NCBI GenBank assembly: GCA_963695855.1
Contig: CAVOHZ010000010.1
Coordinates: 1,152,001 to 1,216,000, forward strand
Length of the DNA stretch: 64,000 nucleotides
Reading direction: 5' to 3'
Source: an uncultured Nitrososphaerales archaeon
GTDB lineage: Archaea > Thermoproteota > Nitrososphaeria > Nitrososphaerales > Nitrososphaeraceae
Shown here piece after piece: positions 1 through 17,993 of the stretch; within the stretch, counting starts at the first letter, position 1; every line of letters starts with the position of its first letter. Below the pieces are notes generated by a model that saw only the letters and a program-made list of their open reading frames with translations, was not told the origin of the DNA and did not search any database. The position numbers and the translations under genes were made by a program.

Positions 1-30
1 ATATATTATGTTACCGAACCCTGATATAAT

Positions 31-81
31 GAGAGTTCGAAGCCCTCCGAGCCCGTATACTAGTAGGGTTCAATAACATTT
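31..81 (+). repeat. tRNA-3'-end-like dispersed repeat, family A, copy 1
   Basis: GAGAGTTCGAAGCCCTCCGAGCCCG resembles a T-arm plus acceptor strand; 46-81 is identical (36 bp) to 17958-17993. Confidence 0.8.
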
Positions 82-193
82 AACAAATTAATTTTATTTT
101 TCTAAAGATTTGACTTCTATAATTGAGAGTTTAAGAACAAATATTTTCAACTCAAGAAATAACATTATTTCAAACTATTTTTTTAATTCTATT

Positions 194-382
194 TTAAGAT
201 GGAATTAATCCTATTTTCGGATCATTATGAAATGCACAAAAATTAGCATAACTAGGGTATTTTTCATGACATAGTGGACAATATTTTTTAGTTTCAGTTA
301 ATATATTTTCCCAGTCAAATTCTTCGCCACAACAGAGACAATTATTTCTTACAAAGATATTTTCTGAAGCAGCAGTTACCAA
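194..382 (-). CDS. small zinc-ribbon protein or fragment
   Basis: CLCC, CPLC and CAFH motifs; TTG start; short. Confidence 0.4.
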   Translation of the reverse strand: MVTAASENIFVRNNCLCCGEEFDWENILTETKKYCPLCHEKYPSYANFCAFHNDPKIGLIPS

Positions 383-442
383 TCTTGAAAAGCTTCAAGC
401 TCTAGGCTTAGAATTTGATTTAGTATATTCAAGTACTCCAAC

Positions 443-1000
443 CTATTTGGTAGATTCTATCCCCTTTTTGAAAAGGTTATACTGTCTGAGTAATCGCCTA
501 TTCAATCCTATTACTATGCCTCCGCTGATAATTAGAGAAATATTAGTTACTAATATCGCTATCAAAATAATTGGAGTATCATTCACTAGCTGGGCATACT
601 CTTCTACGTGTCTATAGAACGAGGCTGATCCAAGGAATATAATAGAAACAGAAATGCGCAAAACCAGCGAAGTAATGAAGACAATTTGAATATATAATCC
701 ACCTTTTGAATAAATAGAGCCGTCAGATCCTCTCCAAAACGAAATTTTTACATAATGGTATGTAAGAAATTCAGCACCTATAAATATAATTATAAAGACA
801 GGGAGAAATAAGACTGGAATGCCAATAAGGAAAGAGTTTAAAATAAAGTAAGAAACAAATATTGAAAAAACGATGGAAATCGCTATCAATACAGTCCTGT
901 TCACCTTTGATCCCTCATGCGCCTTTCTTATCTTTAATATAGCAACTAAAGCGGTAACTATTATTGGAATCAAAGTAATCAAGTCAAAAGAACTGGACAT
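443..1000 (-). CDS. multi-pass membrane protein (CcdC/DUF1453-like)
   Basis: About 5 hydrophobic segments; FWRGSDGSIYSKG loop. Confidence 0.6.
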   Translation of the reverse strand: MSSSFDLITLIPIIVTALVAILKIRKAHEGSKVNRTVLIAISIVFSIFVSYFILNSFLIGIPVLFLPVFIIIFIGAEFLTYHYVKISFWRGSDGSIYSKGGLYIQIVFITSLVLRISVSIIFLGSASFYRHVEEYAQLVNDTPIILIAILVTNISLIISGGIVIGLNRRLLRQYNLFKKGIESTK

Positions 1001-1309
1001 CTAATGAAAAAAGTGAACTAGAATTATAAAAAGTCTATTTTACAGATATCCATTTGTCAAAATATTGTAATAGGATCTATTAAAATTTTAAGGTTGATAT
1101 GATTCTAGTAAATAAATTAGGATTTAATGAATCGACAAAATTTTTGTTCTAAAAATTTTTTATTTAATTTCTAAAAACTTTCTGTTTGTTCAAATAAATA
1201 GTTCATTATTTCTAAAGAAATAAAAGGTATAGATTTGCTTCATTTCTTAAACTCAAGTTTCTATTTGATATTTTATTTTTATCTGAACTACAAAATTGTG
1301 TCAAAATCA

Positions 1310-1353
1310 GTTCACACACCTCCGAGCCCGTATACTGGCAGGATTCAATAACA
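1310..1353 (+). repeat. tRNA-3'-end-like repeat, family A, copy 2
   Basis: GTTCACACACCTCCGAGCCCGTATACTGGCAGGATTCAATAACA matches copy 1 with a few substitutions. Confidence 0.75.
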
Positions 1354-1451
1354 GTTTCTAGTTTAATTCAAAAATAAATGTGAATATTAGAAAACTTACT
1401 ATTGAAATTTGAAAAAGTAGATATTAAATAATTTGATAAACTAAAGGCAGT

Positions 1452-1682
1452 ATGAATTCAATAGTAATTACATCTTTTATTGCATTTGCTATAATTTCCG
1501 TAATGCTAACAGTATTTGAAAATGTGTTTGGACAAGGAGAGGAGGCAGAGCAAAGACAGGATCAATCACCACCAACATTAGATGATAATAACAATGGAAG
1601 AATTATTAGTGAAGAAATTTGTCCGCCATATTGCAGCCCACCTCCTCCGATACAAGAGTTACCACAAGAGCAACCACCATAA
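1452..1682 (+). CDS. small secreted Pro/Gln-rich protein
   Basis: N-terminal hydrophobic signal; CPPYCSPPPP. Confidence 0.6.
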   Translation: MNSIVITSFIAFAIISVMLTVFENVFGQGEEAEQRQDQSPPTLDDNNNGRIISEEICPPYCSPPPPIQELPQEQPP

Positions 1683-1994
1683 TTTTATTTGCACTTTCCG
1701 TATGTTATAATTTCAAGTATCTCTCTTGTTTGTAATAGATTCTAATATTAGAAATAGTAAAATATATTTTATTTCATTTCATTTACGTTTTTAAAATTAG
1801 ATAAATTTTATAATTATATTAGATATTATATTTTTAGCATTAAATATTGACTTTAATTTTCTGATTGAAAGATATGATGAATATAATAAATAAATACATA
1901 AAATTATAATAACATTATTGACATTTCATCCATCTCAATGATATATTATTTTATTTAATAAAGATACAATAATCAGAATGTCTCTTAAATTGAT

Positions 1995-3209
1995 ATGTAT
2001 AAGAATTTTGAAAATAATAATAAACAATTTAAATCAAAATTAGTTGAACATCTAAATGAAACATTATTTATTGAAAATGAATCAATAGGTAGAATAAAAT
2101 CAAGAATAGAACAGACACCGATTCTAGAAGTAAAACAAAGACTACTTCAACATTTAGAAGAAACATATAAGCAAAAAAACAGACTAGAGCAAATAATTGT
2201 AAAATTATCATCAGAAAAATCTAATAAACATAAAGCAAATTTGTTACCATTAACACCTGATTCTTCTAGTATAATAAGAACGAATCTTAAAAATTCAATA
2301 AAATCATTACCAAGTAATGATGAAGGTTTCAATCAAAGATTTAAATCTCTTCCAGAAGAAACTGAATTAACAAGAATTAAGGAAGACTATATAATAGAAT
2401 ATGATGAGGTAGTTACCTATCATAAATTGATACATATTGCAGAAATGACAGATTTACCACAACCCAATGATATTATATCTTTACTAAAAGAAAGTATGCA
2501 GGAAGAAGAATCAATGGCAAACTGGTATCAAGTACATGTGTCAGTGATACTTGAAAACCTATGGCCAAAGCTGATAAATTCTCCCATAAAGCGAGCTCAA
2601 GAATTTCTTCTCAATTATGCGGGTTCTAAAATGCCACTTATTATAATGTATGCGGATCTGGTTGGATCGACTAATTTGAGTATGACTTTATCCGTAGAAA
2701 TTCTTATTGCATTAATAAGAGCATTTACTCATGAACTATCAAATGTTGTAGAAAGATATAATGGTTATGTTCTAAAATATGTAGGAGATGCAGTAATTTC
2801 TTTTTTTCCTTATGCCATAGACAACAAATATCAGGTATGCAAGAATTCAATTGAGTGTGCAAAGTCAATTATAGATGTAATCAATACAGAGATTAATGTA
2901 ATTTTACATAAAAAATATGGTTATCCAGAATTATTTGTAAAAATAGGTATAGATGAAGGAGAAAATGTTGTAATTCAATATGGATATGAAAGAAACTCAC
3001 TAATTGATATATTAGGATACAGTATGAATGTTGCAGCAAAGATAACTTCTCTAACCACTGCGAATAGTATATCCATCGGGGAAAATGTGTATCATTTATT
3101 GGATCATATCCAACAATCAGAATTTCAAGAGTTGAAAATATCTATCAACAATTGGAAATATATCAATCGTGATACGAAAGAACCTTATAGAATTTACAAG
3201 ATAAAGTAA
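1995..3209 (+). CDS. ferritin-like (DUF892/YciF-type) domain fused to class III adenylate/guanylate cyclase
   Basis: N-term HLEET, EYDEVVTY, EEESMANW; C-term YADLVGST, KYVGDAV, KIGIDEG, ILGYSMNVAAK. Confidence 0.85.
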   Translation: MYKNFENNNKQFKSKLVEHLNETLFIENESIGRIKSRIEQTPILEVKQRLLQHLEETYKQKNRLEQIIVKLSSEKSNKHKANLLPLTPDSSSIIRTNLKNSIKSLPSNDEGFNQRFKSLPEETELTRIKEDYIIEYDEVVTYHKLIHIAEMTDLPQPNDIISLLKESMQEEESMANWYQVHVSVILENLWPKLINSPIKRAQEFLLNYAGSKMPLIIMYADLVGSTNLSMTLSVEILIALIRAFTHELSNVVERYNGYVLKYVGDAVISFFPYAIDNKYQVCKNSIECAKSIIDVINTEINVILHKKYGYPELFVKIGIDEGENVVIQYGYERNSLIDILGYSMNVAAKITSLTTANSISIGENVYHLLDHIQQSEFQELKISINNWKYINRDTKEPYRIYKIK

Positions 3210-3429
3210 ATTTTTATCTGATTTAATGTCTGTTCTTTTCCAAGCATTTCAATTTTATACTCATAGCACTCTTTTATTACAGCATTGCCGTATAGTAGAA
3301 ATTAGAATTTTTATATTGAACTCTAAAGAATGGTGTTATAGAACATAATATTATATGAATAAGAATTTGCATTCTAATATTTTAATAAAAATAAAACTTA
3401 TATAAAAATATAACATACCTTATACCTTA

Positions 3430-4379
3430 TGTATTATCCCACCACATGTGTTACACTCCTATTATACACTTGTACTGGTGTCATGTAGTTCAATGACATA
3501 TGTACTCTTTTATTATTGTAATATTTAATGAATTGCTCATGTCTTTTGAATCTAGGTCGCTCTACATCATATGTACGATGCCATCTTTCTATTTTACCAA
3601 GTGTGGTAGGTTTTCCTATACCACCCATAACATGTTGTATGTCATATTCTTTGCAGAAAGAATCAAAATCTGACTGTAATTTAGAATGTGAATTATAGAA
3701 TTGTGAACCATGGTCTGTCAGTATCTGTAATGGTTTTCCATATTTTCTGATTGTACGCTTCAATAGATAAATAATCTTATCTGATGTACCTTCTACACAT
3801 TTGATAGATGATAACACATATCTGGTGTGATCATCAAAAATAGATATCAGCCAAATTCCTTCATTTTCTATAACTTTCAGGTCAATCTGCCACAATTCAT
3901 TTGGAAATTTACGCTCAAATTGTATGTATTTTCTCTTCTTTCTGGGTTTGTTGATAGGATTGTTGTTCAATCCGCTTTTGCATAAAATTCTGTATACTGT
4001 CATATGTCCTACCTTTATGTTGTATTGGTTCGCAAGAGTTCCTTGTATCTTGTGTGGACAGTAATGGTATTTCTTTCTTAACTGTACTACCTTCTGTTCT
4101 ATCTTTTTATCTGTTCTATGAATTGTATGTGGGTCTTTTAGAATGATCTTTTAGTCCATTTAATCCCTCTTTCTTGTACCTGTTCCAGTATCTGTAGAAA
4201 CTCATTCTGGATATGTGTATATGTTTACAGATGTCAGTTACTTTCCATCCTCCTTCCAGTTTACGTCTTATACACCATCTTCTTATCTTTTCTAGATCTT
4301 GTTTATACTGCATCTAGTGTAACAACACTCCTTACTCTTACCAAGTAAAAGAGTGTAACAGATGTCATGGGATAATACA
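3430..4379 (-). mobile_element. IS481-family insertion sequence, 950 bp
   Basis: 29-bp TIRs starting TGT (TGTATTATCCCAccACATgTGTTACACTC, 3 mismatches); 16-bp flanking direct repeat CATACCTTATACCTTA at 3414-3429 and 4380-4395. Confidence 0.92.
3434..4313 (-). pseudogene. IS481 transposase (HTH + rve DDE), one frameshift near 4130
   Basis: ORFs 4116-4313 and 3434-4003 join as KRPHTIHRTDKKIEQKVV...MTVYRIL if one C is removed; WQIDLK, DDHTR, TDHGSQF, GKIERWH. Confidence 0.88.
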
Positions 4380-4392
4380 CATACCTTATACC

Positions 4393-4790
4393 TTAAAGAA
4401 ACTTTTTATATCACTAAGTTTAATATTACCAATAGTTGTAACAATTGTTTTATTAGTTCCACAACTAGTAATAAATTCGCAATCTACAGGTGTAAATGAA
4501 AGGTTAACTAACTCTCAACCTATAGAACCAATAAATTTGTCGTCTATACTAAAATTTGAAAAAGTTAAAACTATTCCTAATGAAATTCATGTTGGAGAGA
4601 AGTTTAGTATAAGTGCAACTGTTGTTAATACAGGGTCTTATCTGTCACTTTTATAGCAAATCTTTGTGATTCTGAACTTTATGCAACGTTTGATAATAAA
4701 GTTGGAGAATTAAATGCTCCAGAATGTAAGATGGTTTCAGAACCCGTTATATTCAATACAGGAGAGAAATCGATAGTGATGATATAAATA
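4393..4790 (+). pseudogene. decayed secreted protein (signal peptide plus Ig-like strand)
   Basis: Reads LKKLFISLSLILPIVVTIVLLV...VGEKFSISATVVNTG then frameshifts; no ATG; starts at the IS481 junction. Confidence 0.5.
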
Positions 4791-4956
4791 TAGTAGTAAG
4801 TTAAAACTTATATACTCATTTTGATATTATCTAGTGTAACATCAATTAAATGTCTTACCATATATATACATATTATAGCAGTAGTTATAGAAAAATGACT
4901 TGATTAGTCCTAAAATACTACCACAGTTAAATATTTGACTGCTGTTATTTTTTGTA

Positions 4957-5625
4957 ATGAATTCAAAAAATTCATTCAAATATGAAAGACTTTCTCCAGA
5001 TAATGCAGCATTATTACTAATAGATCATCAAACAGGTCTTTTACCTTTGGTTAGGGATTCGTCTGATGTAGAATTAAAAAATAATGTGTTGGCTCTAGGA
5101 AAAATAGCAAAAATATTTAATTTACCAGTAGTCATAACATCAAGTTATGAGCAGGGGCCTAACGGACCACTAGCACATGGAGTAACTGAACTCTTTCCAG
5201 ATGTTAAAGTAATAAAAAGACAAGGCGAGATAAATGCATGGGATGACCCAAATTTTGTAAAAGCAGTAGAAGATACAGGACGCAAGAAACTTATCATGGC
5301 TGGAATTGTTACTGATGTTTGTATTGCATTTCCAGCATTATCTGCAATAGAAGCTGGTTATGATGTAATAGTTGCAATAGATGCTTCTGGTACCTTTAAT
5401 CAGACTGTACAGCAAGCAGCAGTTTTACGCATGAGTCAAGCAGGAGCTACAATCATGAATTGGTTCTCTATATGTTGTGAACTTCAAGGCGATTGGAAAA
5501 AATCTACTTCTCCAGACATGGTACGGTTATTTACTGAACATCTTATACAATATGGTCTTATTGTTAGCAGTTATGTTGCTAATAGGCCAGATCAAACTAT
5601 GATACCAAAAGATTTCAAAGCATAA
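4957..5625 (+). CDS. YcaC-like isochorismatase-family hydrolase
   Basis: LLIDHQTGL, GPNGP, INAWD, GIVTDVC. Confidence 0.9.
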   Translation: MNSKNSFKYERLSPDNAALLLIDHQTGLLPLVRDSSDVELKNNVLALGKIAKIFNLPVVITSSYEQGPNGPLAHGVTELFPDVKVIKRQGEINAWDDPNFVKAVEDTGRKKLIMAGIVTDVCIAFPALSAIEAGYDVIVAIDASGTFNQTVQQAAVLRMSQAGATIMNWFSICCELQGDWKKSTSPDMVRLFTEHLIQYGLIVSSYVANRPDQTMIPKDFKA

Positions 5626-5816
5626 TAACAAATAAATAACTTTATTTTTTATTTTTTCAGTTCCCATTTCTCATACCACATATCAAGACTTTGCAAAATT
5701 GGGTCAAGGTCTTTTGTTTTTGTTGTTAATCTATATAGAACTTTATATCGTCAAATAAGTTTTCACTTAACTCAATTTGAAAACAATTATTGAAAAATTA
5801 GTGGTCCTAGATTATG

Positions 5817-5966
5817 GAAGGGCTCAAATCCTACTTATTCCATTTTTCATTTTTTATAGCCTATTAGAAATTGTTTAATAAATATTCAAATAAGTTACCA
5901 AATTAATAAATAAATACCAGTTTACCGATCCCAATTATATGTCATGCTCGAAGCCCTACGAGCCCG
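5817..5966 (+). repeat. composite repeat (family B T-arm motif + spacer + family A motif), homologous to 17827-17993
   Basis: GAAGGGCTCAAATCC...GAAATTGTT...TAAGTTACCAAA...CAGTTTACCGATCCCAATTA...CTCGAAGCCCTACGAGCCCG is colinear with the 17.8-kb copy. Confidence 0.75.
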
Positions 5967-6017
5967 ATTTGATAACCTCATTAAATTTTCACCCAACTAA
6001 TATATTATATTTATTAA

Positions 6018-6192
6018 TGGTGGCGTTGCGCACGAGGCGCTTGATGTAAGCAACCGAATCCCGCTTATATGACGATAGGCGCTGTGCAATCTCCATCGCG
6101 CGATCGAGAGCATTGCCGCTGACGGTTTCATGCACCAGCCCCTTCCTTTCGGCTTCACGTGGAGTGAGGGGAACACACATATTCGAACTAGC
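6018..6192 (-). pseudogene. GC-rich fragment of an enoyl-CoA hydratase/crotonase C-terminus
   Basis: PLTPREAERKGLVHETV...LDRAMEIAQRL...VAYIKRLV; about 57% GC over 6021-6180. Confidence 0.75.
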
Positions 6193-6207
6193 AAAACTCA
6201 TTACTTT

Positions 6208-6750
6208 TTATTTTTTCCAAGGATAATATGCAAGGAAGTAAAAAGCAGGGCATAGAGAAAGTCCAATTACCTTTTCTGGTTTTATTTTTAAAATAACACG
6301 CTTGTGCTGTGGTTTTCTATAATAGTATTTTCCAATTCCTAAATATTTCTTTGCTAGTTTATGTAAATGTTCATCAGCATTATCATAAGTTTGTTCTATG
6401 ACTATGCCTTTTATAGATACCATGTTATACGGATTATATTGTTCAACTACAGATAATGTAACCCTGGGATTTCTTGATACATTTCTTTTTTTGACTGCAG
6501 CATCGGAGGTGTTTACTAATATAATATCATTTTCTTCATCTATATCTGCCCATACAGGAGTAATATGAGGAAATCCATCAGCAGACAATGTAGATATAAA
6601 AGCAAGATTTCTTCCTTTAAAAAGACTATTAAATTGTTCCTTTGAAAGTTCTGTTGAGCCTAATGATTCATTTACTATAAAAAGACCTTCGGTTTCGATC
6701 GGGGGAATATCCACAATATCGATATAGGATTTATTGTCTTCTTTCTCCAT
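6208..6750 (-). CDS. PPOX-class F420-dependent oxidoreductase
   Basis: STLSADGFPHITPVW, KKRNVSRNPRV, RVILKIKP. Confidence 0.88.
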   Translation of the reverse strand: MEKEDNKSYIDIVDIPPIETEGLFIVNESLGSTELSKEQFNSLFKGRNLAFISTLSADGFPHITPVWADIDEENDIILVNTSDAAVKKRNVSRNPRVTLSVVEQYNPYNMVSIKGIVIEQTYDNADEHLHKLAKKYLGIGKYYYRKPQHKRVILKIKPEKVIGLSLCPAFYFLAYYPWKK

Positions 6751-6870
6751 TTTATTATAATTATAATGTCACGTATTAATTTTTATTGATAAGTTGATGG
6801 TTAAAACACAGTTACTATATTACCTAATTGTAACTATCTGATTTATTTAATTCTATTATATAATATAAAC

Positions 6871-7968
6871 ATGGAAAACAAATTAGAAACTCCAGATATG
6901 AAGTACAAATTATTAGGAAAAAGTGGATTACGAGTTTCTGAACTCTGTTTAGGAACAATGACATTTGGAAAAGATTGGGGATCCTTTTTGAAGGGTGCAT
7001 CAAAGGAAGAATCAAAAAAAATATTTGATTTGTTTGTGCATGCAGGGGGAAATTTTATTGATACTGCTAATGTATATCACAATGGGACTAGTGAAAAATA
7101 TGTAGGAGAATTTATAGCACCTGAACGAGATAAATTTGTTCTAGCTACCAAATATACTTTGACTACAAATCCTAATGACCCTAATGCTGGTGGAAATCAT
7201 CGTAAAAATCTATTTCAATCGGTAAATGCCAGTCTAAAGAGATTAAACACTGAATATATAGATCTTCTCTGGGTACATATCTGGGATTTTATGACTCCTA
7301 TTGAGGAGGTTATGCGTTCTTTAGATGATATGGTAAGGTCTGGAAAAGTACTCTATATAGGAATTTCTGATGCACCAGCATGGATTGTATCCCGTGCTAA
7401 CACACTTTCAGAACTCCGAGGCTGGTCGTCTTTTATAGGTCTTCAGATAATGTACTCATTGATTGAACGAACACCGGAAAGAGAATTGTTACCTATGGCA
7501 CGTTCGCTTGATATTGGAGTAACGGCATGGTCGCCTCTTGGAATGGGCGTTCTTTCCGGTAAATATAGCAAAGAAGATAACAAAAATAAAGAACCAAAGA
7601 GATTTGATCCAAATCATCCAATGGCTTCAACATTTGTAAATGAGCGAAATATATCAATTGCTAAAGAAGTACAGACAATAGCTAATGAAATTGAGAAAAC
7701 TCCTTCACAAGTTGCTCTAAATTGGATAATAAACCAAAAGCAGAAAGGAGTAATTATACCCATATTAGGAGCTAGAACTCAAGCCCAAATAATAGATAAT
7801 TTGGGCTGCTTAGAATTCAAATTAGATTCTGAACATATGAAAAGATTAAATGAAATATGCAAAATTGAGCTAGGATTTCCTTATGATTTCATATCCTCTG
7901 ATGTAGTAAGAAATCAGATTTATGGCAATCTATATTCATCAATAGAATATCATAGACTGGATTATTGA
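6871..7968 (+). CDS. aldo/keto reductase
   Basis: GLRVSELCLGTMTFG, FIDTANVY, LATKY, IDLLWVH, AWSPLG. Confidence 0.95.
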   Translation: MENKLETPDMKYKLLGKSGLRVSELCLGTMTFGKDWGSFLKGASKEESKKIFDLFVHAGGNFIDTANVYHNGTSEKYVGEFIAPERDKFVLATKYTLTTNPNDPNAGGNHRKNLFQSVNASLKRLNTEYIDLLWVHIWDFMTPIEEVMRSLDDMVRSGKVLYIGISDAPAWIVSRANTLSELRGWSSFIGLQIMYSLIERTPERELLPMARSLDIGVTAWSPLGMGVLSGKYSKEDNKNKEPKRFDPNHPMASTFVNERNISIAKEVQTIANEIEKTPSQVALNWIINQKQKGVIIPILGARTQAQIIDNLGCLEFKLDSEHMKRLNEICKIELGFPYDFISSDVVRNQIYGNLYSSIEYHRLDY

Positions 7969-8055
7969 GAGATAATTTTCAATAGCCATTACATATTTCA
8001 ACAATGTGTTCCAATAATTTACCTATTTGTATTTACTGATAATTCTATAGTGTTT

Positions 8056-8718
8056 TTAGACCCTAGAACAAATGTCAATGAATTCTTTCGTAGATAATAA
8101 CGAGTGTCCATAACTAGGAAAATTAACTTCTACAGTTGCATTTATTTCTTCCCAGTTGTATGCTGCTATAGCATCCTTGATCAAAGTTGTATGATAACCT
8201 AGTTCAACTGCATATCTGGCTGTTGTATCAATACAAGTATTAGCCCGCATACCTATTATAATCACATGATCCACATTGTGAAGTTTTAACAAAAAATCAA
8301 GGTTTGTATTTGCAAATCCACTAGCAGTCCAATGGTTTTGAGCAATGAGATCTCCTTGTTTAGGCGCAAGTTCAGGATGGAATTCTCCACCCCAACTTCC
8401 TTTTTCAAAGAGGGAATACTTTAAAGATCCCTTATGTGCAGGTGCCAAGAATTTCCAATCTTCAAAATCTCCTATTTCGTAATTATGATGAGGGACATAT
8501 ACAACTTTAATACCTGAAGATCTTGCTGCAGATAAAATTTTTTTCAGGTTTTCTATCAGGTTAATACCCATAACAGTTTCTTTCGTTTTATGCCATCGTT
8601 TACCATCTTCAGATAAAAAATCGTTAAATGGATCAACTATCATAACAGCAGTATTAGTTGAAGTATAATTTTCCATAATGATGTATATTATATTTTTCAT
8701 AATTAAACATAAGCCCAT
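8056..8718 (-). CDS. cysteine hydrolase (isochorismatase family)
   Basis: VDPFNDF, SGFANTNLD, GMRANTC; true start probably a downstream Met. Confidence 0.9.
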   Translation of the reverse strand: MGLCLIMKNIIYIIMENYTSTNTAVMIVDPFNDFLSEDGKRWHKTKETVMGINLIENLKKILSAARSSGIKVVYVPHHNYEIGDFEDWKFLAPAHKGSLKYSLFEKGSWGGEFHPELAPKQGDLIAQNHWTASGFANTNLDFLLKLHNVDHVIIIGMRANTCIDTTARYAVELGYHTTLIKDAIAAYNWEEINATVEVNFPSYGHSLLSTKEFIDICSRV

Positions 8719-8737
8719 AATTGCTATAGATGAAAGT

Positions 8738-8780
8738 CACTGGTCCCACTTTATAGAAGGGTTCAAATCCCATCGGTTCC
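8738..8780 (+). repeat. tandem tRNA-T-arm-like repeat, family B
   Basis: CACTGGTCCCA followed by GAAGGGTTCAAATCCCATCGGTTCC. Confidence 0.65.
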
Positions 8781-9254: not shown

Positions 9255-9511
9255 GCTAAATTTGTATCAATTTGTATTTGACTCAAATACATTGTTGTTT
9301 ATATTTTTGTTCATATACAACAGTATTATAAAGGATAAAATGTAGCCAATATCGGGGCAATTATCAATATATATAATTTTGAATTCTCAGAATTCATTAT
9401 TATTTTTTCTAATAATTATTAGAGTATATTTAAAAATTATTCAATAATAACATCTTCTAAAATAACTTAATAAAATAACTTTAATTAAATACTAAGATCA
9501 AATATCTATTA

Positions 9512-9672
9512 TTGAAATATGATTGGGATGCAACAGCATATGATCATATTTCAGATATACAAGAATCATGGGGACATTATATAATCAAATATATAAAATG
9601 CAAGGGAAATGAAATTGTTCTTGATGCTGGTTGTGGTTCTGCAAGATTAACCAAGATTTTATCAATTAAATG
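9512..9672 (+). pseudogene. N-terminal fragment of a Tam-like SAM methyltransferase
   Basis: YDWDATAYDHISDIQESWG...VLDAGCGSARLT then stop. Confidence 0.75.
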
Positions 9673-9723
9673 ACTATATCAAATACGTATAAATTAATAA
9701 TATATGATTATGGGATACAATAT

Positions 9724-10194
9724 TTATAGTAAATGATTCTTTTTTACAATCTTTACAAATTCTTCTAACTTTTTCAAAGTTTGCTGATGTAAATGGTGTT
9801 CTATACCCTCTGCATCTTTATTTGCAATATCTTCGTCTACTCCAATCATTTTTAAAAATTCAGCCAACAAACTATGTCTCTGATGAATATTAATGGCCAC
9901 ATCAATCCCCTGCTGGGTTAGACAAATTCCCCTATATTTTTCATATTTGAGATAGCCAGTTTCATCCAATCGCTTTACCATTTTAGTTACACTTGGAGAA
10001 CTCACATTAAGGCATTGAGAAATATCTATGGTTGTAGCATAACCTTTCTGCTGTACCAATTCATAAATAACTTCAAGATAATCTTCCATTCTATCTGTAC
10101 GGTCTTCGTTTTCCTTCTTTCCGGTATGAGCATCACGAATCGATTCAAGACGATTGATACCTGCATCAGAGTCAGCTTTCAACTTTCTTAGCAA
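9724..10194 (-). CDS. mntR: DtxR/MntR-family metal-dependent regulator
   Basis: MEDYLEVIYEL, VSSPSVTKMVKRL, RHSLLAEFL, AEGIEHH. Confidence 0.92.
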   Translation of the reverse strand: MLRKLKADSDAGINRLESIRDAHTGKKENEDRTDRMEDYLEVIYELVQQKGYATTIDISQCLNVSSPSVTKMVKRLDETGYLKYEKYRGICLTQQGIDVAINIHQRHSLLAEFLKMIGVDEDIANKDAEGIEHHLHQQTLKKLEEFVKIVKKNHLL

Positions 10195-10239
10195 TTTTTA
10201 TTTACCATCCTTATGTATATTTTAGTTACTAACAATTAG

Positions 10240-11559
10240 TTAAGATGGTATCAGCACTGATGTTGCATACATTATTGCCATTCCTACCGTAAATCCTGCA
10301 ATCATAGGTGTACTTAACATAGTCTTTCTTGGTTCATTAGTATTTGATGACATCCAAGAAGTGATGGAAAATACTACTTGAAATATTGCACCAGCACCTA
10401 TAGACAAGAATATTATTGCAGCAATAGGAGAATAGAGAAACCCTCCAATCCATGCTCCTACTATTGTTGGAACACCAGCTATCAAACCCATTGTTATCAG
10501 TTTTCGTATTGTCACTTTGGCACCACTTTTGGCCATTGGTGCTACTATTGCTAATCCTTCAGTAGTATTGTGTAAGGTAAATCCAACTATGAGAAAAGTA
10601 CTGAGGGCTACTTGTCCTAATAGAACAGCAGCACCTATTGCCAGACCTTCTCCAAAGTTATGTAATCCAATTCCTATTGCAATCATCATTGCTATAGCGA
10701 AAGGTTTTGCTAATTGTTGTTGCTGTTGTTGTTTTTGAAGGTCCTTTGTCGTAGAAGAAGAGAAGGAGGAAGAATATGTTACTAAGTTAGATTTAGACGT
10801 ATTGGCATCAGACTTGATTTTGGCGTGTTCAATAAGTTTTTCAGATGCATATAACAATACCAAGAAGGTAATGATTGTGATCATAGCAATCAACACTTGG
10901 CCATTAAAAGCTCCTGCAATATTTTCCCCTACAATTTCATTGCTTTCTACTAGTGCATCTATTCCTAAGAAGACAAGCAATCCTGTCGTAAGACTAAGGA
11001 AGAATTTATACTTGTTCATGCCAAGTCTTTTTATAAATGGAAACCAGAGAAGACCTATCAGTACGGGTATAACTCCTACATATATACCAATAATTGCAAA
11101 GTATGATGCTTGCTGAACATTTGGAGTTGGTGCTAATGCAGCCGCTTCAACACTCTTGCTAAACCTTGTACCATCAGAACTAGTCACTCCAACTTCATAT
11201 GGTACGCCTGCAATCCAAGAAAAAGGTACTATAACCTTTGCTTCTGCCAGTCTTGGCAATGTTTTACTTGGTTCTATTGCAGCTGGAATCATCCGATCAT
11301 TAATGTCGGCTTGCGCAATTTCTACTCCTTCTGGACCAGTATTACGGATAAATGCTACAATTTTATCATTTTGGAATTCTATCTTTTCTATTGTGATTTC
11401 AGGCAAAGGTATTCCTGTGTTTAATATCGACATACCAGGACCAAGAAGAAATACAAGCATTCCAGACAGTACTATTAAGGGAATTAACGCTATAACGATC
11501 ATTTTTTTTCGACTCGTCTTCCTGTTATTTCTATCGATTCTATTTTCATCAGACTCCAT
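10240..11559 (-). CDS. ZIP-family metal transporter with extracellular N-terminal domain
   Basis: IGLHNFGEGLAIG and LHNTTEGLA ZIP motifs; poly-Gln loop. Confidence 0.92.
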   Translation of the reverse strand: MESDENRIDRNNRKTSRKKMIVIALIPLIVLSGMLVFLLGPGMSILNTGIPLPEITIEKIEFQNDKIVAFIRNTGPEGVEIAQADINDRMIPAAIEPSKTLPRLAEAKVIVPFSWIAGVPYEVGVTSSDGTRFSKSVEAAALAPTPNVQQASYFAIIGIYVGVIPVLIGLLWFPFIKRLGMNKYKFFLSLTTGLLVFLGIDALVESNEIVGENIAGAFNGQVLIAMITIITFLVLLYASEKLIEHAKIKSDANTSKSNLVTYSSSFSSSTTKDLQKQQQQQQLAKPFAIAMMIAIGIGLHNFGEGLAIGAAVLLGQVALSTFLIVGFTLHNTTEGLAIVAPMAKSGAKVTIRKLITMGLIAGVPTIVGAWIGGFLYSPIAAIIFLSIGAGAIFQVVFSITSWMSSNTNEPRKTMLSTPMIAGFTVGMAIMYATSVLIPS

Positions 11560-11564
11560 TTCTC

Positions 11565-12791
11565 TTAACTGCCTCCTTGTGAAGCTTCTCCATATCTAAC
11601 AACTGCTGCAGATTGAGAATTTTTTGTTTTACTTTGAGTAGTAAAAGTATTCTTACTTATCTCAGCTGGATAGTCAGCTCTCTCACCTTTAGTAAATGCA
11701 GTCACATCTGACTCAGATAGGCCTTCTTTAACCAAGAACAGGCCAGTCCATCCTTTCTCTGCAAATTCTGTCTTGTGAGCGTGGAACATATAGGGACCGG
11801 GATACTTGTAGGAGAATTCTAGTATTGCTCTTTCACCTTGACTAAATGTTACCACATCTGTATACTCATTAGGAGTAACGCTGGTTCCAGTTCGATAGAG
11901 ATGAAATAGATTGCCATGCAGGTGAAAATTATTTATTTGATCAAATTCTAGTATATTAACCAAGTATACACGTACCAATTTGTCTTTTTCAATTTGGATA
12001 GGATGGTGCATGTAATAATTTGGAATTCCATTTACTGTGTAAAAGTTATTTTCAGTATCAAAGTCATTATCATATCCATTCATTACCATAACCATTTCAT
12101 CAGCTGGAGGTCTTGGTGTTTTAGGGTCTACAATATATGCACCATAAAGACCCTTAGAGATGTGCTCTTCTAAAGGCTGCATATGACAGTGGTAAAGAAA
12201 TAGACCAAATGGTTCAGCTATAAATTCATAAGTGAAGCTTCCACCGGGAGCAATAATTTCAAATACTCCATCCATTTGAGATTGATGAATGCCATGAAAA
12301 TGCATAGTATGAGGTTTTGATCCATTATTTATGAACTTGATTTTAACTAGATCACCTTCGGTTGCTCTAATTGTTGGACCTGGAATTGTTCCATTAAACG
12401 TCCAAGCATCCATAAATACACCTGGTGATACTTCAAGATTCTTATCTAGAGCTACTATAGTAAATTCGCGTAATGTGGTTCCGTTGTCTGTTGTCGATAC
12501 TTTCCCGTAATTGAACTCTCTTAGATATTTCATTGGATCTATAGTCAGATCAGTCCTTTCGTCCGCATTGAGTGAATCTAAAACATCACCTGTAGTTCTA
12601 ATTGTATTGTATCCACTACCGTGTCCGCCAGTAACTATTGTTTCCTTTTTAGTTGTTTTTTCTTCCTCCTTTGAGAAGGTATTATTATTCTGTGCAACTA
12701 CTGAAACTCCACTAAGAAAAGAAATAGCAAAAGATGTAGTTAGACTACCTGATAAAAGTATAGCAATTAATATTATTTTCGATCTTGACAT
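11565..12791 (-). CDS. two-domain multicopper oxidase, secreted
   Basis: PHTMHFHG, YHCH...H, FHLHG, MFHAH; signal peptide. Confidence 0.93.
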   Translation of the reverse strand: MSRSKIILIAILLSGSLTTSFAISFLSGVSVVAQNNNTFSKEEEKTTKKETIVTGGHGSGYNTIRTTGDVLDSLNADERTDLTIDPMKYLREFNYGKVSTTDNGTTLREFTIVALDKNLEVSPGVFMDAWTFNGTIPGPTIRATEGDLVKIKFINNGSKPHTMHFHGIHQSQMDGVFEIIAPGGSFTYEFIAEPFGLFLYHCHMQPLEEHISKGLYGAYIVDPKTPRPPADEMVMVMNGYDNDFDTENNFYTVNGIPNYYMHHPIQIEKDKLVRVYLVNILEFDQINNFHLHGNLFHLYRTGTSVTPNEYTDVVTFSQGERAILEFSYKYPGPYMFHAHKTEFAEKGWTGLFLVKEGLSESDVTAFTKGERADYPAEISKNTFTTQSKTKNSQSAAVVRYGEASQGGS

Positions 12792-12820
12792 ATGAATAGT
12801 ATTGTTAGTCTAAATAATAA

Positions 12821-12840
12821 ATGTTAGCCTATGCTAATAT
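12821..12840. promoter_or_regulatory. putative DtxR/MntR operator
   Basis: Imperfect palindrome ATGTTAGC-CTAT-GCTAATAT 30 bp upstream of the MCO start; resembles DtxR boxes. Confidence 0.65.
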
Positions 12841-13050
12841 TATTAATAAGCTTAAATATTTTATCATAGGGTTTCATAATTATAATTAGTATCTCTTTTG
12901 ACCTATAACAAATACTATATCAGTTTACTAATATCTAATCATAGACTTTGAAAATTAAATTACTGTTTTTGCCAATAGAAGTTTGTTAGATTTTATGTTA
13001 AATGTGAATATCATTTAACATTCTTATTGTCATAGAAGGGACCAAAATTT

Positions 13051-13084
13051 ATGTCATATTTGTTTCACATCCCACTGGCCCCAT
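13051..13084 (+). repeat. tRNA-3'-like att site upstream of the integrase remnant
   Basis: TTCACATCCCACTGGCCCCA resembles a T-loop plus acceptor strand; inverted copy at 8956-8989. Confidence 0.75.
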
Positions 13085-13181
13085 TTATAAGTGGGTTCAT
13101 ATACTTTGGGTTTGCTATAAGATTTTGTAGATATAAGATTTTGTAAAAGCAAGAAGGAGGAGAATAGAAGGATAAATATCA

Positions 13182-13792
13182 TTGAAATTATTTACAACGA
13201 TAGGAAAAATTCAAAATATCCCTAATTCCAAAAATATAGAACTAATAAATGAATTTCTAGAATATACGAGAAATAATAGTTCTTCAGAACATCATCAAAA
13301 TAAGAATATAAAAGTTTATAATAACATTGGTAATTTTATAGGTAAAACATTTGATTTTTAGCTATAACCAAAAAAGAACAAATTTTAGAATTTCTTAATA
13401 CTAAAGTTAAAAGATATTATGAAGATCCTGATAAAAGAATGATATCAACATGGAACAATTACCTCAATCGGTTAAGACTATTTTATTTTTATAGATGGTT
13501 ATACAATCATGCTAATGACACTGATCATGAAAATTGGCGAACTCCAGAATTTGTCAGGATAAAGAACAAAAAAAGTAAAAGAATATCTCCATATTTAGAA
13601 AGTGAAATTTGGGAAAAAGATGAATTATTGTCTATAATCAAAAATCAACCATATAAAGAGAAGAAGGCAGCTCTAACATTGTTTTGGGATCTAAATGGAG
13701 AAATCATAAAATTACTAAAATTAAAACATATTAGATTCAGGGAAAAATACGCAGAAGGTGAGGTCCCTCTGAAGGTATTAATTAAAGAATGA
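13182..13792 (+). pseudogene. truncated, frameshifted tyrosine integrase (Nitrososphaeraceae type)
   Basis: EDPDKRMISTWNNYL, FYRWLYN, ISPYLESEIWEKDELLSIIK, AALTLFWDL, LKLKHIRFREKYAEGEVP; C-terminal catalytic half missing. Confidence 0.7.
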
Positions 13793-13963
13793 TAGACATT
13801 TTATATTGACATTAGTCTTCAGTGTCAGACCAAAAAGTGTTTAGGAAAAGGTGACAACCTTTAGAGCCTCGCTAATCCCATATCTTTTTTTATCTAATGA
13901 TATGGATTATCGTTACACTTTGTGGATCACGTTGGCTGGCTGACTATTTCATGTCTTTATATT

Positions 13964-14383
13964 CTAAAAGAGACGTCTGTGCTCTGCCATCATACACCTA
14001 TTGTAAACAACATCCATGCCATTTTCCTTTGCTTTCTTCTCCGCCTCCTCATTGTAGATGCCTTCCTGCATCCAAATCACCTTAATGTCATCTTTTCTGT
14101 TAAGTGCATCATCTATTACAGGAAGTACATCTTCTGATTTTCTAAATATGTCTACTACATCTACCCTTTCTGGAATGTCTGCTATTGTTGGATATGATTT
14201 TCTTCCCAATACTTCAGAAATTGTTGGATTGACTGGAATAACATTATATCCATGTTCAATAAGGTATTTAGGTACAAAATTTCCTGCCTTTTCTTCGTTT
14301 TTTGACATACCAACTACTGCAATATTTTTCAACTGGTAGATTTTCTTTAACTCTGAATCTGAATGAGAATCCTGCTTTGTCAT
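13964..14383 (-). CDS. CoA-binding protein (YccU-like)
   Basis: IAVVGMS, VIPVNP, VDVVDIFR, IWMQEG, NRCM. Confidence 0.93.
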   Translation of the reverse strand: MTKQDSHSDSELKKIYQLKNIAVVGMSKNEEKAGNFVPKYLIEHGYNVIPVNPTISEVLGRKSYPTIADIPERVDVVDIFRKSEDVLPVIDDALNRKDDIKVIWMQEGIYNEEAEKKAKENGMDVVYNRCMMAEHRRLF

Positions 14384-14568
14384 ACTATTATTATTATAGT
14401 TTTATACAATAATATTATTGCTATTATTTGGACTGTGCGAAAAATTTTTGTTCATTTGTTCTTCTCTAATCACGTACTAAAAATGCAATGGTTTGAAGAT
14501 AATGAACTTGTATTATATAGTAATAAAGAGCGTAATGAATTTGCTTTTAAGACTGATAGTGAATCAGC

Positions 14569-15273
14569 GCTCTGTTAATTTAAGATAATTTCCACCTCCT
14601 TTAACTCAAAATCATTATTATTATTCGTTATTGTATCATTATACATAGATACAAAGAATTGTATCCAGTTATGTACATGAAATAGATTACATTCCTCTTT
14701 TCGCATACAAGGAGAGTAGTCATCAAAACTTTCTATTCTGTCTTTCAAATACTGGTTGACCCGTTCCATTAGACTTTTCTCTATTGAAGAATGAACATAA
14801 TGTTTCAATCCAATTACATTACATGCTTTATCATATCATGTACCTTCATCTGCGTATACAATATGCTTTCCATATTTTGATACAAGAGATCGAATGAACT
14901 TTTCAGCGACTATCATGTTTCTCTCTTCAGAAATATATATTCCAAGCACAGAACTGTGTACCGGTTCAATACAAAACCATAACCAGAAGTGCTGGTTACC
15001 AATCTGAATAATGGTCTCTATAATAAAAGCAGTTACTCTTTTTCTTTTATAGATCTGCAATGAACCAAATCTTTGAATCCAGTTCCCATACAGCAATGTA
15101 ACTTCTCTTTTCATCTCTAAATATTATCAATGCCTTGTATGTATTACGTAGACTTAAACCAAGATAAAGAGAATACATTACTATAACTGTGGATGTTCTA
15201 TTTCTAATGAATTTAACAAGTATTTATTAGAGATAGGACATTCACAGCTAAATCTATTTTCTTAAAACAGCCC
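14569..15273 (-). mobile_element. degenerate IS6-family element (fragmented transposase)
   Basis: [51 protein letters not shown] spread over several frames. Confidence 0.85.
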
Positions 15274-15290
15274 TTTTTTTGAAGGAATGA

Positions 15291-16637
15291 TTAATACTTA
15301 TGTTCTTTTTTTGTTTCTCTTATTACAGAATCTATATATTTTTCTAACTCATTTTCATCCAATTCAAATTTAGCCTCTTTGTCCATTTCTAGAGTATCTT
15401 TCTTTTGAGTAATTTTTTTGACAGTTCTTCGAATTTCGGCGTCCATCTCTGCTTGTCCTATTAGACCCAACAACCTTGACTCCAAGGCATGCTTACGTAT
15501 AAGTTTACGCAGATTATGATTAGTTGAAACAAGCGTTGCGGAATTGTAAATACCTAACAACATCAAAAATGCTCCTATATTCAAAACTGTTATCGATGAA
15601 AGTCCGAAAGGAGGATAAGGACTAACGACTTGTGTTGCTGCCTGATTTGCGGCAAATATTAAAAATATGCCAAAACCAGAGATTATCATGTATGTCCTGA
15701 TGATTCTATCATAACTAATGATTCTGGATATCTTCCAAAATGCAAGTCCGAAAAGCAATCCTCCGATGGGTTTACTTAATGCTAGGAATGCTCCTAACAT
15801 GATAGAAACAGTTACCGGATCAATTGCGAGATACGAAATTAGTATCCTGCTTAGGGTATACTGGTAAAAATATGTAATTAAAAAATACACAAGTGGTACA
15901 GACAATAAGATCCAATACACTATAGCATTTGTAGACTTCTCTCTGTAATTGTTCATTAATATTGCTGTTGTAATCCATATACTGAAAAAAGATATAAATG
16001 ACAAAATTCTGGAAACATTCGCTAAAAATAGATGTTTAGCCAAAGTTACGTCTCCCGAGCTTCCAACATATTCCCCTATACGATCTGGCAATGCATTCAT
16101 CTTGACACTGATAAAAGCGGCAGTCATGATTAAATTAAATGCTATCATTAACATTGACATAAAATATAAAAAGACAATCAAGTTGCGGTTTGATTTAAAC
16201 CAAGAGAAGAACATGATAGATAAAAATAATATCAAAGTTGCTGCTGTTCCATAACTTATAACAATTATCATAATACTGACAGGTGTGTAGAAGTAGTTAT
16301 TATGGAACTGTTGAAATATTAGAATTCCTATCAAACTTGCCAAAACAAATAATGAAATTAACGAAATTCTGTTAAAAGCCCAAACCATCAATCTCTTATT
16401 TAATTTGTAACTTTCAGATGAACTCTGTATATACTTTATAATCAAAAATTCTAAAAGCAGACATAATGAACTGTTGATGGAAAATAATATTAACTTACTT
16501 TGTAAAGGAATAAAATATTTATCAATGAGATCGTTTATCTTTACAACTGAAGTATCAATTAGTAAAGTCACTATTAATACGGTCACAAGAATAAGAAATT
16601 TCCTATTGCACCCTAATTTTTTATCATTTATAAGCAA
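15291..16637 (-). CDS. multi-pass membrane protein of unknown function
   Basis: About 10 TM segments and a charged C-terminal tail. Confidence 0.8.
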   Translation of the reverse strand: MLINDKKLGCNRKFLILVTVLIVTLLIDTSVVKINDLIDKYFIPLQSKLILFSINSSLCLLLEFLIIKYIQSSSESYKLNKRLMVWAFNRISLISLFVLASLIGILIFQQFHNNYFYTPVSIMIIVISYGTAATLILFLSIMFFSWFKSNRNLIVFLYFMSMLMIAFNLIMTAAFISVKMNALPDRIGEYVGSSGDVTLAKHLFLANVSRILSFISFFSIWITTAILMNNYREKSTNAIVYWILLSVPLVYFLITYFYQYTLSRILISYLAIDPVTVSIMLGAFLALSKPIGGLLFGLAFWKISRIISYDRIIRTYMIISGFGIFLIFAANQAATQVVSPYPPFGLSSITVLNIGAFLMLLGIYNSATLVSTNHNLRKLIRKHALESRLLGLIGQAEMDAEIRRTVKKITQKKDTLEMDKEAKFELDENELEKYIDSVIRETKKEHKY

Positions 16638-16716
16638 ACTTGATTATGCAGTGTAGAGTGAGCATAAAGACAAACATAATCTTTTTGTATTAGAGCTTGT
16701 AAATTGTGATGATATA

Positions 16717-17430
16717 TTGCCTAGAACAACCGGCTTAATCGCCACATCTTTTATATTCATACTGTTACTATTGTCATTTACGATATCGCCAGTTTTAGCT
16801 TCAAAGTCAGTAAATATTTTTCCCCCAGGAAGCAAACCATATGGTTTAACATATGCCGAACATGAAAAAAACTTCTGGACGTGGACACTAGCGATACCAG
16901 CGAAAGAAAGTCCTGTTAACGATCCTACAGGAGAGAAATGTGCAAAAGGTCAGACGAATACAAATTCGTCAGTTTTTTACTTGAGTTTTAACAATGGAGG
17001 TATATCTGATAGAACATGTAAAGTCCCAGCTGGCAAAGGTCTAGTAATACCAGTAATGCAGGTAGAGTGGTCTGACAAGGAATACCCAAATTCATCGGTA
17101 GAGCAGTTGCGTGAGGCCGCTAAGAAGGATCAAGATAGTGTTAACAGTTTGTATCTTAAAATAGATGATAAAGAGTACAAGTATGAGGATCTTATTAAAT
17201 ATAGAACTCCTACAGATGCTTTTGGGGTTGTCTTTCCTGATAATGGAATTTTTGGAGTTATTGAATGTGGTGTTTCCAAAGTTGTTGCTGATGGATTTTA
17301 TATAATAACTGAACCGCTTACCAAAGGCAATCACTCGATCCATTTTAAATCAAGTTTAATTTGTCCCGATCCAGATTGTGCAGAGCCTAATTTTGCACAA
17401 GATATAAAATACAATATAGTTGGACAATAG
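16717..17430 (+). CDS. secreted Cys-containing hypothetical protein
   Basis: Signal peptide; PYGLTYAE, DPTGEKC, VADGFY motifs. Confidence 0.8.
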   Translation: MPRTTGLIATSFIFILLLLSFTISPVLASKSVNIFPPGSKPYGLTYAEHEKNFWTWTLAIPAKESPVNDPTGEKCAKGQTNTNSSVFYLSFNNGGISDRTCKVPAGKGLVIPVMQVEWSDKEYPNSSVEQLREAAKKDQDSVNSLYLKIDDKEYKYEDLIKYRTPTDAFGVVFPDNGIFGVIECGVSKVVADGFYIITEPLTKGNHSIHFKSSLICPDPDCAEPNFAQDIKYNIVGQ

Positions 17431-17826
17431 ATAGATATACTAATACCAATTCTCTCCTTTTTTATCACAATTCTATTTCCGGTTCTTTTTTACATTTTTT
17501 CATTGTCTTTCCAATTCTGTTACACTTATGTTTTAGATATGGTTGAATATTCCTCTAATAGATTGTCTAAATCATGAACAGCAGTGAAGGATTCAAATCC
17601 CTATCTATGTTAATTCTTTAACAATAGTTTTAAGAAAATTCTTTAGCACAATCTAAAAAATTCATTTATCCTTAACTATATTCTAATGATATATCTACCA
17701 ATGTAGTTGCAGCATTCGAACTCCTTCATAAACTTTCATCTATTGAAACCTGGATATACATTATTTTAACTTAACAGAATCTTGATGATATTTATTTTAT
17801 TCAAAGAGTAACTAGTTCCCTTTGTC

Positions 17827-17993
17827 GAAGGCTTCAAATCAAACTGATTCCTTTTTTCCATTTTTTCCAATCAATTGGAAATTGTTATCAATTATTAAGT
17901 TACCAAACTAATAAATGTCAGTTTACCGAGCCCAATTACATGTCAAACTCGAAGGCTTCCGAGCCCGTATACTAGTAGGGTTCAATAACATTT
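17827..17993 (+). repeat. composite repeat (family B + family A), copy matching 5817-5966 and 46-81
   Basis: Direct sequence comparison; a further B motif GAAGGATTCAAATCCC lies at 17586. Confidence 0.8.

Follow-up and report, generated by a model that had tools for sequence, protein, structure and literature searches.

Family A repeats of Nitrososphaeraceae as candidate att-like sites bounding small integrase-less gene cassettes

The stretch of DNA analysed here, referred to below as the window, comprises 64,000 nucleotides (nt) from an uncultured Nitrososphaerales archaeon of the family Nitrososphaeraceae (assembly GCA_963695855.1, contig CAVOHZ010000010.1, positions 1,152,001 to 1,216,000 of the forward strand), and two families of short repeats, A and B, are dispersed among the accessory genes of its left part. 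Family A is interpreted here as a set of att-like recombination sites that bound integrase-less cassettes and are exchanged by a recombinase acting in trans, a reading to which we assign a probability of about one half. The original prediction, made from the letters of the window, held that recombination at these repeats moves or exchanges small gene-carrying segments. This core proposal finds support in homology that breaks inside the repeat, in the free combination of its left and right parts, in a strand shared by neighbouring copies, and in spacings that mostly correspond to a single gene.

The presence of both families in the window was assessed by matching the family A 21-mer and the family B 17-mer, with 100 shuffles as control. 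The A 21-mer occurs without mismatch at 35-55 and with two mismatches at 5946-5966, against 0 expected, while a profile built from the four A copies returned exactly four plus-strand matches in 64 kb (2-98, 1292-1369, 5912-5988 and 17913-17998; E 1e-26 to 5e-16), the only others at E < 1 being two weak minus-strand self-matches of the same four copies. The B 17-mer is found with 0-3 mismatches at 5817, 8756, 17586 and 17827 (expectation 0.11; 0/100 shuffles reach four), corresponding to plus-strand profile matches at 5792-5857, 8732-8796, 17560-17627 and 17803-17865 (E 3e-16 to 1.5e-9). All eight copies are therefore on the plus strand and confined to the first 18 kb, the profile search giving no A or B copy in the remaining 46 kb, and none of the eight overlaps an open reading frame (ORF) of at least 60 amino acids (aa). 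Number, position, strand and intergenic placement are thus as originally described. The two B-A composites also exist (5792-5988 and 17803-17998, each consisting of B, ~70 nt and A), with a length of ~195 bp instead of the ~150 bp first given. G+C content is ~30% throughout the window. Only 7 nt of the window precede the first A copy, so that the array may extend upstream beyond the part visible here.

The distribution of the A repeat was explored by scanning a species-representative genome collection once with a degenerate pattern for the A core and its tail. The scan yielded 13 loci on 11 contigs of six Nitrososphaeraceae/Nitrososphaerales genome assemblies, five of them labelled as metagenome-assembled genomes (MAGs), with a G+C content of 25-37%. 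The window itself is not among these loci, which were viewed with 2 kb on each side, and the comparative evidence accordingly consists of assembled contigs, mostly of MAGs, with 2-kb flanks. Together with the four copies of the window, 17 copies in the loci (the weaker ones recovered by profile and one degenerate copy by BLAST) give 21 distinct A copies. Loci L002, L006/L007 and L013 belong to one MAG, in which the A site family is thus present at several places, and the genes flanking the loci are accessory ones that run in either direction (PNPOx, SnoaL, NHL repeat, CBS, dioxygenase, hydrolases, MFS). Searches of a phage collection with the B-A composite returned one chance-level match, to a microvirus capsid gene (E = 4e-3), and those of a plasmid collection no match. 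Two other non-coding stretches of the window, 57105-57294 and 47740-47872, recur at 73-81% identity near A sites of other MAGs (L011 1782-1960 and L003 2266-2401), and further repeat families may exist in these genomes.

Alignment of the 21 A copies on their invariant stretch revealed a modular site. The core, CCTCCGAGCCCGTATACT, spans 18 nt and is essentially invariant in 16 copies and partly kept in the other five. On its left are arms of ~40 nt that fall into three classes, mutually unalignable beyond CCT, designated v1 (...ACCGATCCCAATTACATGTCATACTCGAAGCCCT; 10/21 copies), v2 (TGAACTACAAAATTGTGTCAAAATCAGTTCACACACCT; 6/21) and v3 (ATGTTACCGAACCCTGATATAATGAGAGTTCGAAGCCCT; 5/21). On its right, 16 copies carry the half R1, TAGTAGGGTTCAATAACAT or close variants, with similarity extending to ~60 nt in some, and the remaining five carry non-R1 halves. 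Every arm class is found both with R1 and with a non-R1 right half, so that left and right parts combine freely. Among the 16 R1-type copies, eight show no difference across the 36 nt of core and R1; they come from five assemblies and from the window, and their flanks are unalignable.

Two kinds of symmetry can be read in the site, neither of which is statistically secure. Sites of the v1 and v3 classes with R1 bear imperfect 14-nt inverted repeats at both ends, ATGTTACCGAACCC ... GGGTTCAATAACAT, complementary at 12 of 14 positions, the left one being absent from the six v2 sites. The core can be read as CCCTCCGAG, 8 nt and CTAGTAGGG, complementary at 7 of 9 positions, or in an alternative arrangement at 8 of 11 with an 8-nt spacer. 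A small minus-strand ORF in the site was dismissed as non-coding, because its start codon is lost in three right-half variants, as judged by eye.

More than one copy is present in the window (four), L003 (two), L006/L007 (two and a degenerate one), L009/L010 (three) and L013 (two). Across these five sequences, neighbouring copies agree in strand in all eight comparisons (chance 2^-8, ~0.004), and the four B copies of the window and that of L003 are on the same strand as the A copies. The A-to-A spacing amounts to 1275, 4636 and 12001 nt in the window, 1568 and 1685 nt in L006, 1276 and 576 nt in L010, 1437 nt in L013 and 1484 nt in L003. Six of these nine intervals measure 1.3-1.7 kb, the size of a one-gene cassette, and to that extent the predicted single-gene cassettes are recognisable; the description does not suit two of the three window intervals, which at 4.6 and 12 kb contain several genes. 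The rightmost visible site is non-R1 in 4/4 multi-site loci (L003, L006, L010 and L013), as expected for arrays that end in host DNA, and the right half of this site in L003 carries an inverted copy of the left core arm (CTCCGAG...TCGGAG). Five of the 11 contigs have a site less than 400 nt from a contig end, against ~1.8 expected by position alone, an excess that is only a hint but fits variable neighbours within the sampled populations.

The strongest evidence for recombination comes from the points at which homology between genomes ends. All-against-all BLAST of the window and the loci gave three pairs with long flanking homology, and in 3/3 of them homology stops inside the site, within the A core. 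In pair (a), window 37-1351 and L010 194-1509 are 99.24% identical across 1316 bp and encode a 185-aa protein without a single difference (185/185). On the left of this unit, the arm is of class v3 in the window and v1 in L010, and the DNA farther out is unrelated; on the right, the two sequences diverge straight after ...CCGAGCCCGTATACT. The 1.27-kb unit behaves as a cassette, being the same unit set between different neighbours on both sides. Pair (b) consists of L002 and L006, two contigs of one MAG, which match at 88.6% over 421 bp on the right and have v1 and v2 left arms, respectively. In pair (c), L004 1-1213 and L006 2482-3692, from different species-level MAGs, are 99.0% identical over 1213 bp, a stretch comprising a CBS-domain gene and its left arm; homology ends after CTCGAAGCCC, with divergence from the core onward. 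The crossover is limited on the right by pairs (a) and (c) and on the left by pairs (a) and (b), which together confine it to ~15 nt. It also follows from these breakpoints that left arms travel with the DNA on the left, and right halves with the DNA on the right. Two cassettes have 99% identity between assemblies representing different species of the collection.

The mechanism that we propose would operate on an A site of ~75 bp, composed of a left arm (v1, v2 or v3), the invariant 18-nt core and a right half. Crossover within CCGAGCCCGTATACT would excise, insert or exchange the DNA between two sites, possibly in a site-specific manner and through circular intermediates. The exchanged DNA would measure 0.6-12 kb, often with one accessory gene but no recombinase. 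The asymmetry of the core would keep the products in one orientation, and for that reason repeated events would build head-to-tail cassette arrays. The recombinase would be encoded elsewhere and act in trans; it is probably a tyrosine recombinase, as suggested by imperfect inverted arms on either side of a short identical core (CCCTCCGAG, 8 nt, CTAGTAGGG).

Several observations weigh against this reading. No tyrosine or serine recombinase domain was detected in 177 ORFs (64 of the window, 34 of the loci and 79 further short frames), a search that covered the window from position 1, where the array is cut, and 2 kb on each side of the loci; the predicted building of the array by an integrase is therefore not borne out by any ORF examined. 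The core dyad is weak (at best 7/9 or 8/11 with an 8-nt spacer) and is estimated to be non-significant given the arrangements tried. Window site 4 carries R1, yet no site follows in the next 46 kb, which a simple array model does not predict. The non-R1 copies lose similarity at differing points, after CCC, CCCG or CCCGTAT, so that the junction is not demonstrably at one nucleotide. Neither an excised circle, nor an empty site, nor a complete attB/attP pair was observed in the window and loci. Lastly, the position of the breakpoints does not discriminate site-specific from homologous recombination: sites with different arms share only the core and the right half, and homologous recombination would therefore also resolve there.

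The same search found no integrase or integrase remnant between the sites of the window or the loci, and NCBIfam added nothing for the unnamed ORFs. The only enzymes of DNA mobility detected were DDE transposase fragments (IS481-like in the window and L005, IS6-like, DDE_Tnp_1 and DDE_3). The IS481-like transposase was considered as the enzyme and set aside, its presence near the sites being judged coincidental: it occurs there in just 2 of 12 sequences, in differing orientation, and is a DDE enzyme. Both IS481-family genes are broken, with the helix-turn-helix and rve parts in separate frames (window 3437-4313 and L005 2983-3955, both on the minus strand), and each is 1-2 kb from an A site; a short match to the L005 copy is also found at window 38778-38887.

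Homologous recombination between passive repeats is the main rival, and a serious one, even though we consider it somewhat unlikely. The copies would then be elements resembling miniature inverted-repeat transposable elements (MITEs) or repetitive extragenic palindromic (REP) sequences, or a conserved intergenic module, shuffled by homologous recombination, with looped-out circles re-entering at other copies. Breakpoints must fall in the only shared stretch whatever the mechanism, Campbell-type homologous events would likewise preserve the orientation of an array, and the failure to find a recombinase in the ORFs examined is what this account would lead one to expect. The agreement in strand in 8/8 comparisons and the lack of copies in the other 46 kb of the window argue against it, as does the 36-nt identity of eight R1 copies amid unalignable flanks, which points to selection on the sequence or to very recent spread.

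A likeness to MITEs lies in the short (~75-195 bp), non-coding, multi-copy and intergenic nature of the repeats and in the imperfect terminal inverted repeats of most A copies, namely the 14-nt ones of v1 and v3 sites with R1. However, target-site duplications were seen at 0/21 copies, the v2 sites have no left inverted repeat, and homology continuing on both sides of the element, as for a simple insertion, was encountered in 0/3 pairs. With their one-sided homology, their modular arms and, in the window and loci, their clustered copies of constant orientation, the A sites do not fit a simple MITE, and these points count against the passive-repeat account as well.

An origin of the repeats from the 3' end of a tRNA gene, which formed part of the original prediction, now appears unlikely. 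On this account, the A sites would be copies of a host tRNA 3' end left by serial integration of integrase-carrying elements that have since decayed. Window copy 1 can indeed be read as a T arm followed by the 3' strand of an acceptor stem (GAGAG TTCGAAG CCCTC CGAGCCC G), B contains GGTTCAAATCC, and a tRNA could lie upstream of the window if the array extends there; thaumarchaeal integrated elements are reported to use tRNA genes in 39/68 cases, and re-use of one site in tandem is known (PMC6563490). However, ARAGORN with default settings detected no tRNA, either in the window or in the 13 loci, and the window has no Rfam match at gathering scores, which agrees with the earlier remark that no tRNA 5' half is visible; at E up to 10, Rfam found no tRNA on 1-150, 8600-8900 and 17500-18050, three stretches that hold copies. 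A relaxed ARAGORN search allowing introns produced eight implausible hits (introns of 132-1295 nt or 29% GC) and was discounted, the one hit examined having 29% GC and mismatched stems. The T-arm-like hairpin, of 3-4 bp, is confined to the v3 class (5/21 copies), disrupted in v1 (10/21) and absent in v2 (6/21), and conservation continues 24-60 nt beyond the supposed tRNA 3' end. Moreover, the core string is missing from the published att table of 74 thaumarchaeal elements (PMC6563490 supplement), and segments as small as 0.6-1.6 kb contain no integrase remnants.

That the repeats encode small RNAs or have a cis-regulatory function (as terminator, operator or promoter module), with no role in recombination, is very unlikely. 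Such a function would suit the T runs that follow B and some A copies, an A/T-rich box in the composite spacer that could by eye be a promoter, and the good RNA fold of window copy 1 (z = -4.2). Other copies do not keep this fold, however: three A copies have z values of -0.2 to -1.65 as RNA, and 18/21 copies lie above -2.4 as DNA. No Rfam family matches, the repeats keep to one strand regardless of which way the adjacent genes run and of the families these belong to, and homology ending inside the element would be left unexplained.

A bacterial-type integron or a cluster of attC sites lacking an integrase (CALIN) is highly improbable, despite same-orientation arrays of short, imperfectly palindromic sites between single accessory genes and despite integrons reported in 75 archaeal MAGs, Thermoproteota included, according to PMC9668308: the RYYYAAC ... 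GTTRRRY pair was found in 0/21 sites (regular-expression scan, ±120 nt, both strands), single-stranded folding reached z <= -2.4 in only 3/21 top-strand and 2/21 bottom-strand sites (DNA parameters, 100 shuffles each), the crossover falls ~20 nt inside the site instead of 6 nt from its 3' end, ORFs point both ways, and no IntI-like gene was found in the ORFs examined in the window and loci (±2 kb). Identity with bacterial attC was rejected on the end-motif scan and the folding results, and the comparison with an integron contained in the original prediction is retained as an analogy only.

The A arrays share with integrons and CALINs, which PMC9668308 reports from archaeal MAGs, a head-to-tail layout, mostly single and promoter-poor accessory genes, recombinase-less cassettes, and an identical cassette beside different neighbours. 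They differ in having no attC consensus or conserved hairpin, in their central crossover and in the mixed direction of their ORFs, and no intI, attI or Pc was seen. As far as scanned, the A site family is confined to Nitrososphaeraceae/Nitrososphaerales assemblies, unlike attC.

Streptococcal cis-mobilizable elements are att-flanked and integrase-less, and accrete in tandem at one chromosomal att next to an integrative and conjugative element (ICE) that supplies the enzyme. The A units resemble them as integrase-less, att-flanked segments that would rely on a recombinase encoded elsewhere, and differ in that no ICE is in view here. In Acinetobacter dif modules, the pdif sites alternate in orientation. 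The A sites show little sign of a dif-like 11-6-11 architecture, for which the best arrangement reaches 7/11 only, and all of them point one way. The likeness lies in small recombinase-less accessory modules, short conserved sites and a host enzyme that acts in trans to shuffle the modules between replicons, pdif sites themselves being 11-6-11 Xer sites, as outlined in two sources (PMC6449649, PMC13141974).

Tandem integrated elements that re-use one att site, among them the cryptic ones of thaumarchaea, as characterised in PMC6563490 and PMC8371274, offer a further parallel in their short flanking direct repeats and same-orientation tandem accretion, and the 18-nt A core fits the thaumarchaeal median att length of 17 bp. 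Those elements are defined by carrying an integrase and measure 2.6-140 kb (PMC6563490, PMC8371274), whereas the A units span 0.6-1.7 kb in six or seven of nine intervals, have no integrase, and belong to a site family found at several places in one MAG instead of at one tRNA. These four kinds of system are the closest known by behaviour, and none shares the A site. The core strings occur in no paper of the searched literature, and searches for integron-like systems in ammonia oxidisers or for Nitrososphaera islands with direct repeats yielded nothing relevant, subscription journals being outside the coverage of both.

Family B, ACTGGTCCCACTTTATAGAAGGGTTCAAATCCCACTGATTCC followed by T runs, is a separate module of 45-65 nt. 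It forms the distal end of a long v1 arm in four composites (window 5792, window 17803, L003 and L012) and stands alone at 8732 and 17560. The DNA on the left of B is unrelated in every copy, as is the DNA on the right of the lone copies, and B therefore constitutes a module with junctions of its own. Both A (core and right half) and B read CCC-N10-AGGGTTCAA. Homology between them is nonetheless not supported, the A-core profile reaching the B copies only at E = 8.3, which leaves the shared reading as a lead only. The left edge of B, too, is a point at which homology between copies stops, so that B may be a second site type of the same kind; alternatively, it may be part of the long arm.

From left to right, the window opens with A site 1 (1..79, plus strand), which has a v3-type left arm at ~8-43 and an invariant core with R1 at 44-79 (core profile E 5e-15). 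Cassette 1 (80..1282) contains one ORF, 443-1000 on the minus strand, encoding a predicted membrane protein of 185 aa that has no Pfam or NCBIfam match; ten relatives were retrieved, without genomic context, and are uninformative on mobility. A site 2 (1283..1354, plus) combines a v2-type left arm (1283-1318), a core at 1319-1336 and the variant right half TGGCAGGATTCAATAACAG (core match 1319-1353, E 4e-12). Segment 2 (1355..5791) holds ORFs at 1452-1682 (plus), 1995-3209 (plus; DUF892 and nucleotide cyclase), 3437-4313 (minus; the frameshifted IS481-like transposase) and 4957-5625 (plus; isochorismatase). B copy 1 (5792..5857, plus), followed by T runs, is the left part of composite 1, which is completed by A site 3 (5912..5988, plus) with a v1-type left arm, a core bearing one change, CCTACGAGCCCG, and the non-R1 right half ATTTGATAACC....

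Segment 3a (5989..8731) comprises a GC-rich gene fragment (6017-6180) and three ORFs, namely a PNPOx-like gene (6208-6750, minus), an aldo/keto reductase (6871-7968, plus) and an isochorismatase (8056-8718, minus). The GC-rich island, ~160 nt within DNA of 30% G+C and immediately following A site 3, is probably a piece of a foreign gene; a 70-aa frame in it (5989-6201, minus) resembles by eye the C-terminal end of an enoyl-CoA hydratase (crotonase) and has no Pfam match. B copy 2 (8732..8796, plus) stands alone and is followed by a run of eight T. Segment 3b (8797..17559) encodes DtxR-like, ZIP and multicopper oxidase proteins, a CoA-binding protein, an IS6-like fragment and two family-less membrane or secreted proteins. 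A 4-kb block in this segment is bracketed by a 55-nt inverted repeat, 84% complementary (8952-9006 / 13034-13088), and contains the DtxR-like repressor (9724-10194), the ZIP transporter (10240-11559) and the multicopper oxidase (11565-12791); the transposase fragment, IS6/IS240-like, is at 14839-15123 on the minus strand. B copy 3 (17560..17627, plus) also stands alone and is the most degenerate and weakest copy (E 1.5e-9). Composite 2 follows, with B copy 4 (17803..17865, plus) as its left part and A site 4 (17913..17998, plus), which has a v1-type left arm and core with R1 at 17957-17991, then a run of seven T (E 2.9e-14).

Domain searches agree with the first description of the intervening genes as hydrolases, oxidoreductases, fragments and a GC-rich piece. 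Between the repeats of the window are two isochorismatases, an aldo/keto reductase, two PNPOx-like proteins, a luciferase-like monooxygenase and a cyclase, in addition to the multicopper oxidase, ZIP transporter, DtxR-like repressor and the IS481-like and IS6-like transposase fragments. The two unnamed ORFs beside B copies 3 and 4 and A site 4 resemble membrane and secreted proteins.

Other features were recorded in the remainder of the window. Two overlapping long ORFs occupy 24891-28627, a 618-aa frame without family match and then a 627-aa ATPase of HerA/DUF87 type, which could be a defence or DNA-translocation pair. At 33517-34385 lies an array resembling clustered regularly interspaced short palindromic repeats (CRISPR), in which a 30-nt repeat (GTTTCAAACC[T/C]ATTTTAGTCAATTTCTAAG) recurs at least 13 times with a period of 62-69 nt and one repeat-plus-spacer unit is duplicated exactly (34115-34250). 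Pfam identified no cas gene in any part of the window, and Rfam at gathering scores no CRISPR repeat family. Beside this array, ~290 nt (34407-34694) are duplicated 5.5 kb away at 39934-40220 with 93-100% identity, and the latter may represent a second leader region without an array. An apparently whole DDE_Tnp_1 transposase is at 48978-49946 (plus), its start and the upstream 120 nt being repeated 2 kb upstream at 79-94% identity (46862-47235 / 48854-49228). Finally, ~29 tandem copies of a 15-nt unit at 54443-54875 fall in ORF 53999-54823, a pentapeptide-repeat protein with a weak extensin-like Pfam hit.

Soil nitrification is driven by ammonia-oxidising archaea, whose ways of gaining accessory genes are little understood. 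The catalogued mobile elements of thaumarchaea, as surveyed in PMC6563490, are integrase-carrying islands of at least 2.6 kb, insertion sequence (IS) elements, casposons and proviruses. Beyond the reading of family A as att-like sites, it is possible, and put forward tentatively, that these repeats belong to an undescribed native cassette-capture system of Nitrososphaeraceae, integron-like in behaviour and built on a ~75-bp double-stranded att-like site unrelated to attC, with cassettes exchanged between species. If so, it would represent a new route of gene flow, by which single recombinase-less genes move between positions and species, and an independent, non-attC counterpart of the integron. 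With its 18 nt, the core would offer a concrete starting point from which to mine genomic and metagenomic data and to track down the enzyme.

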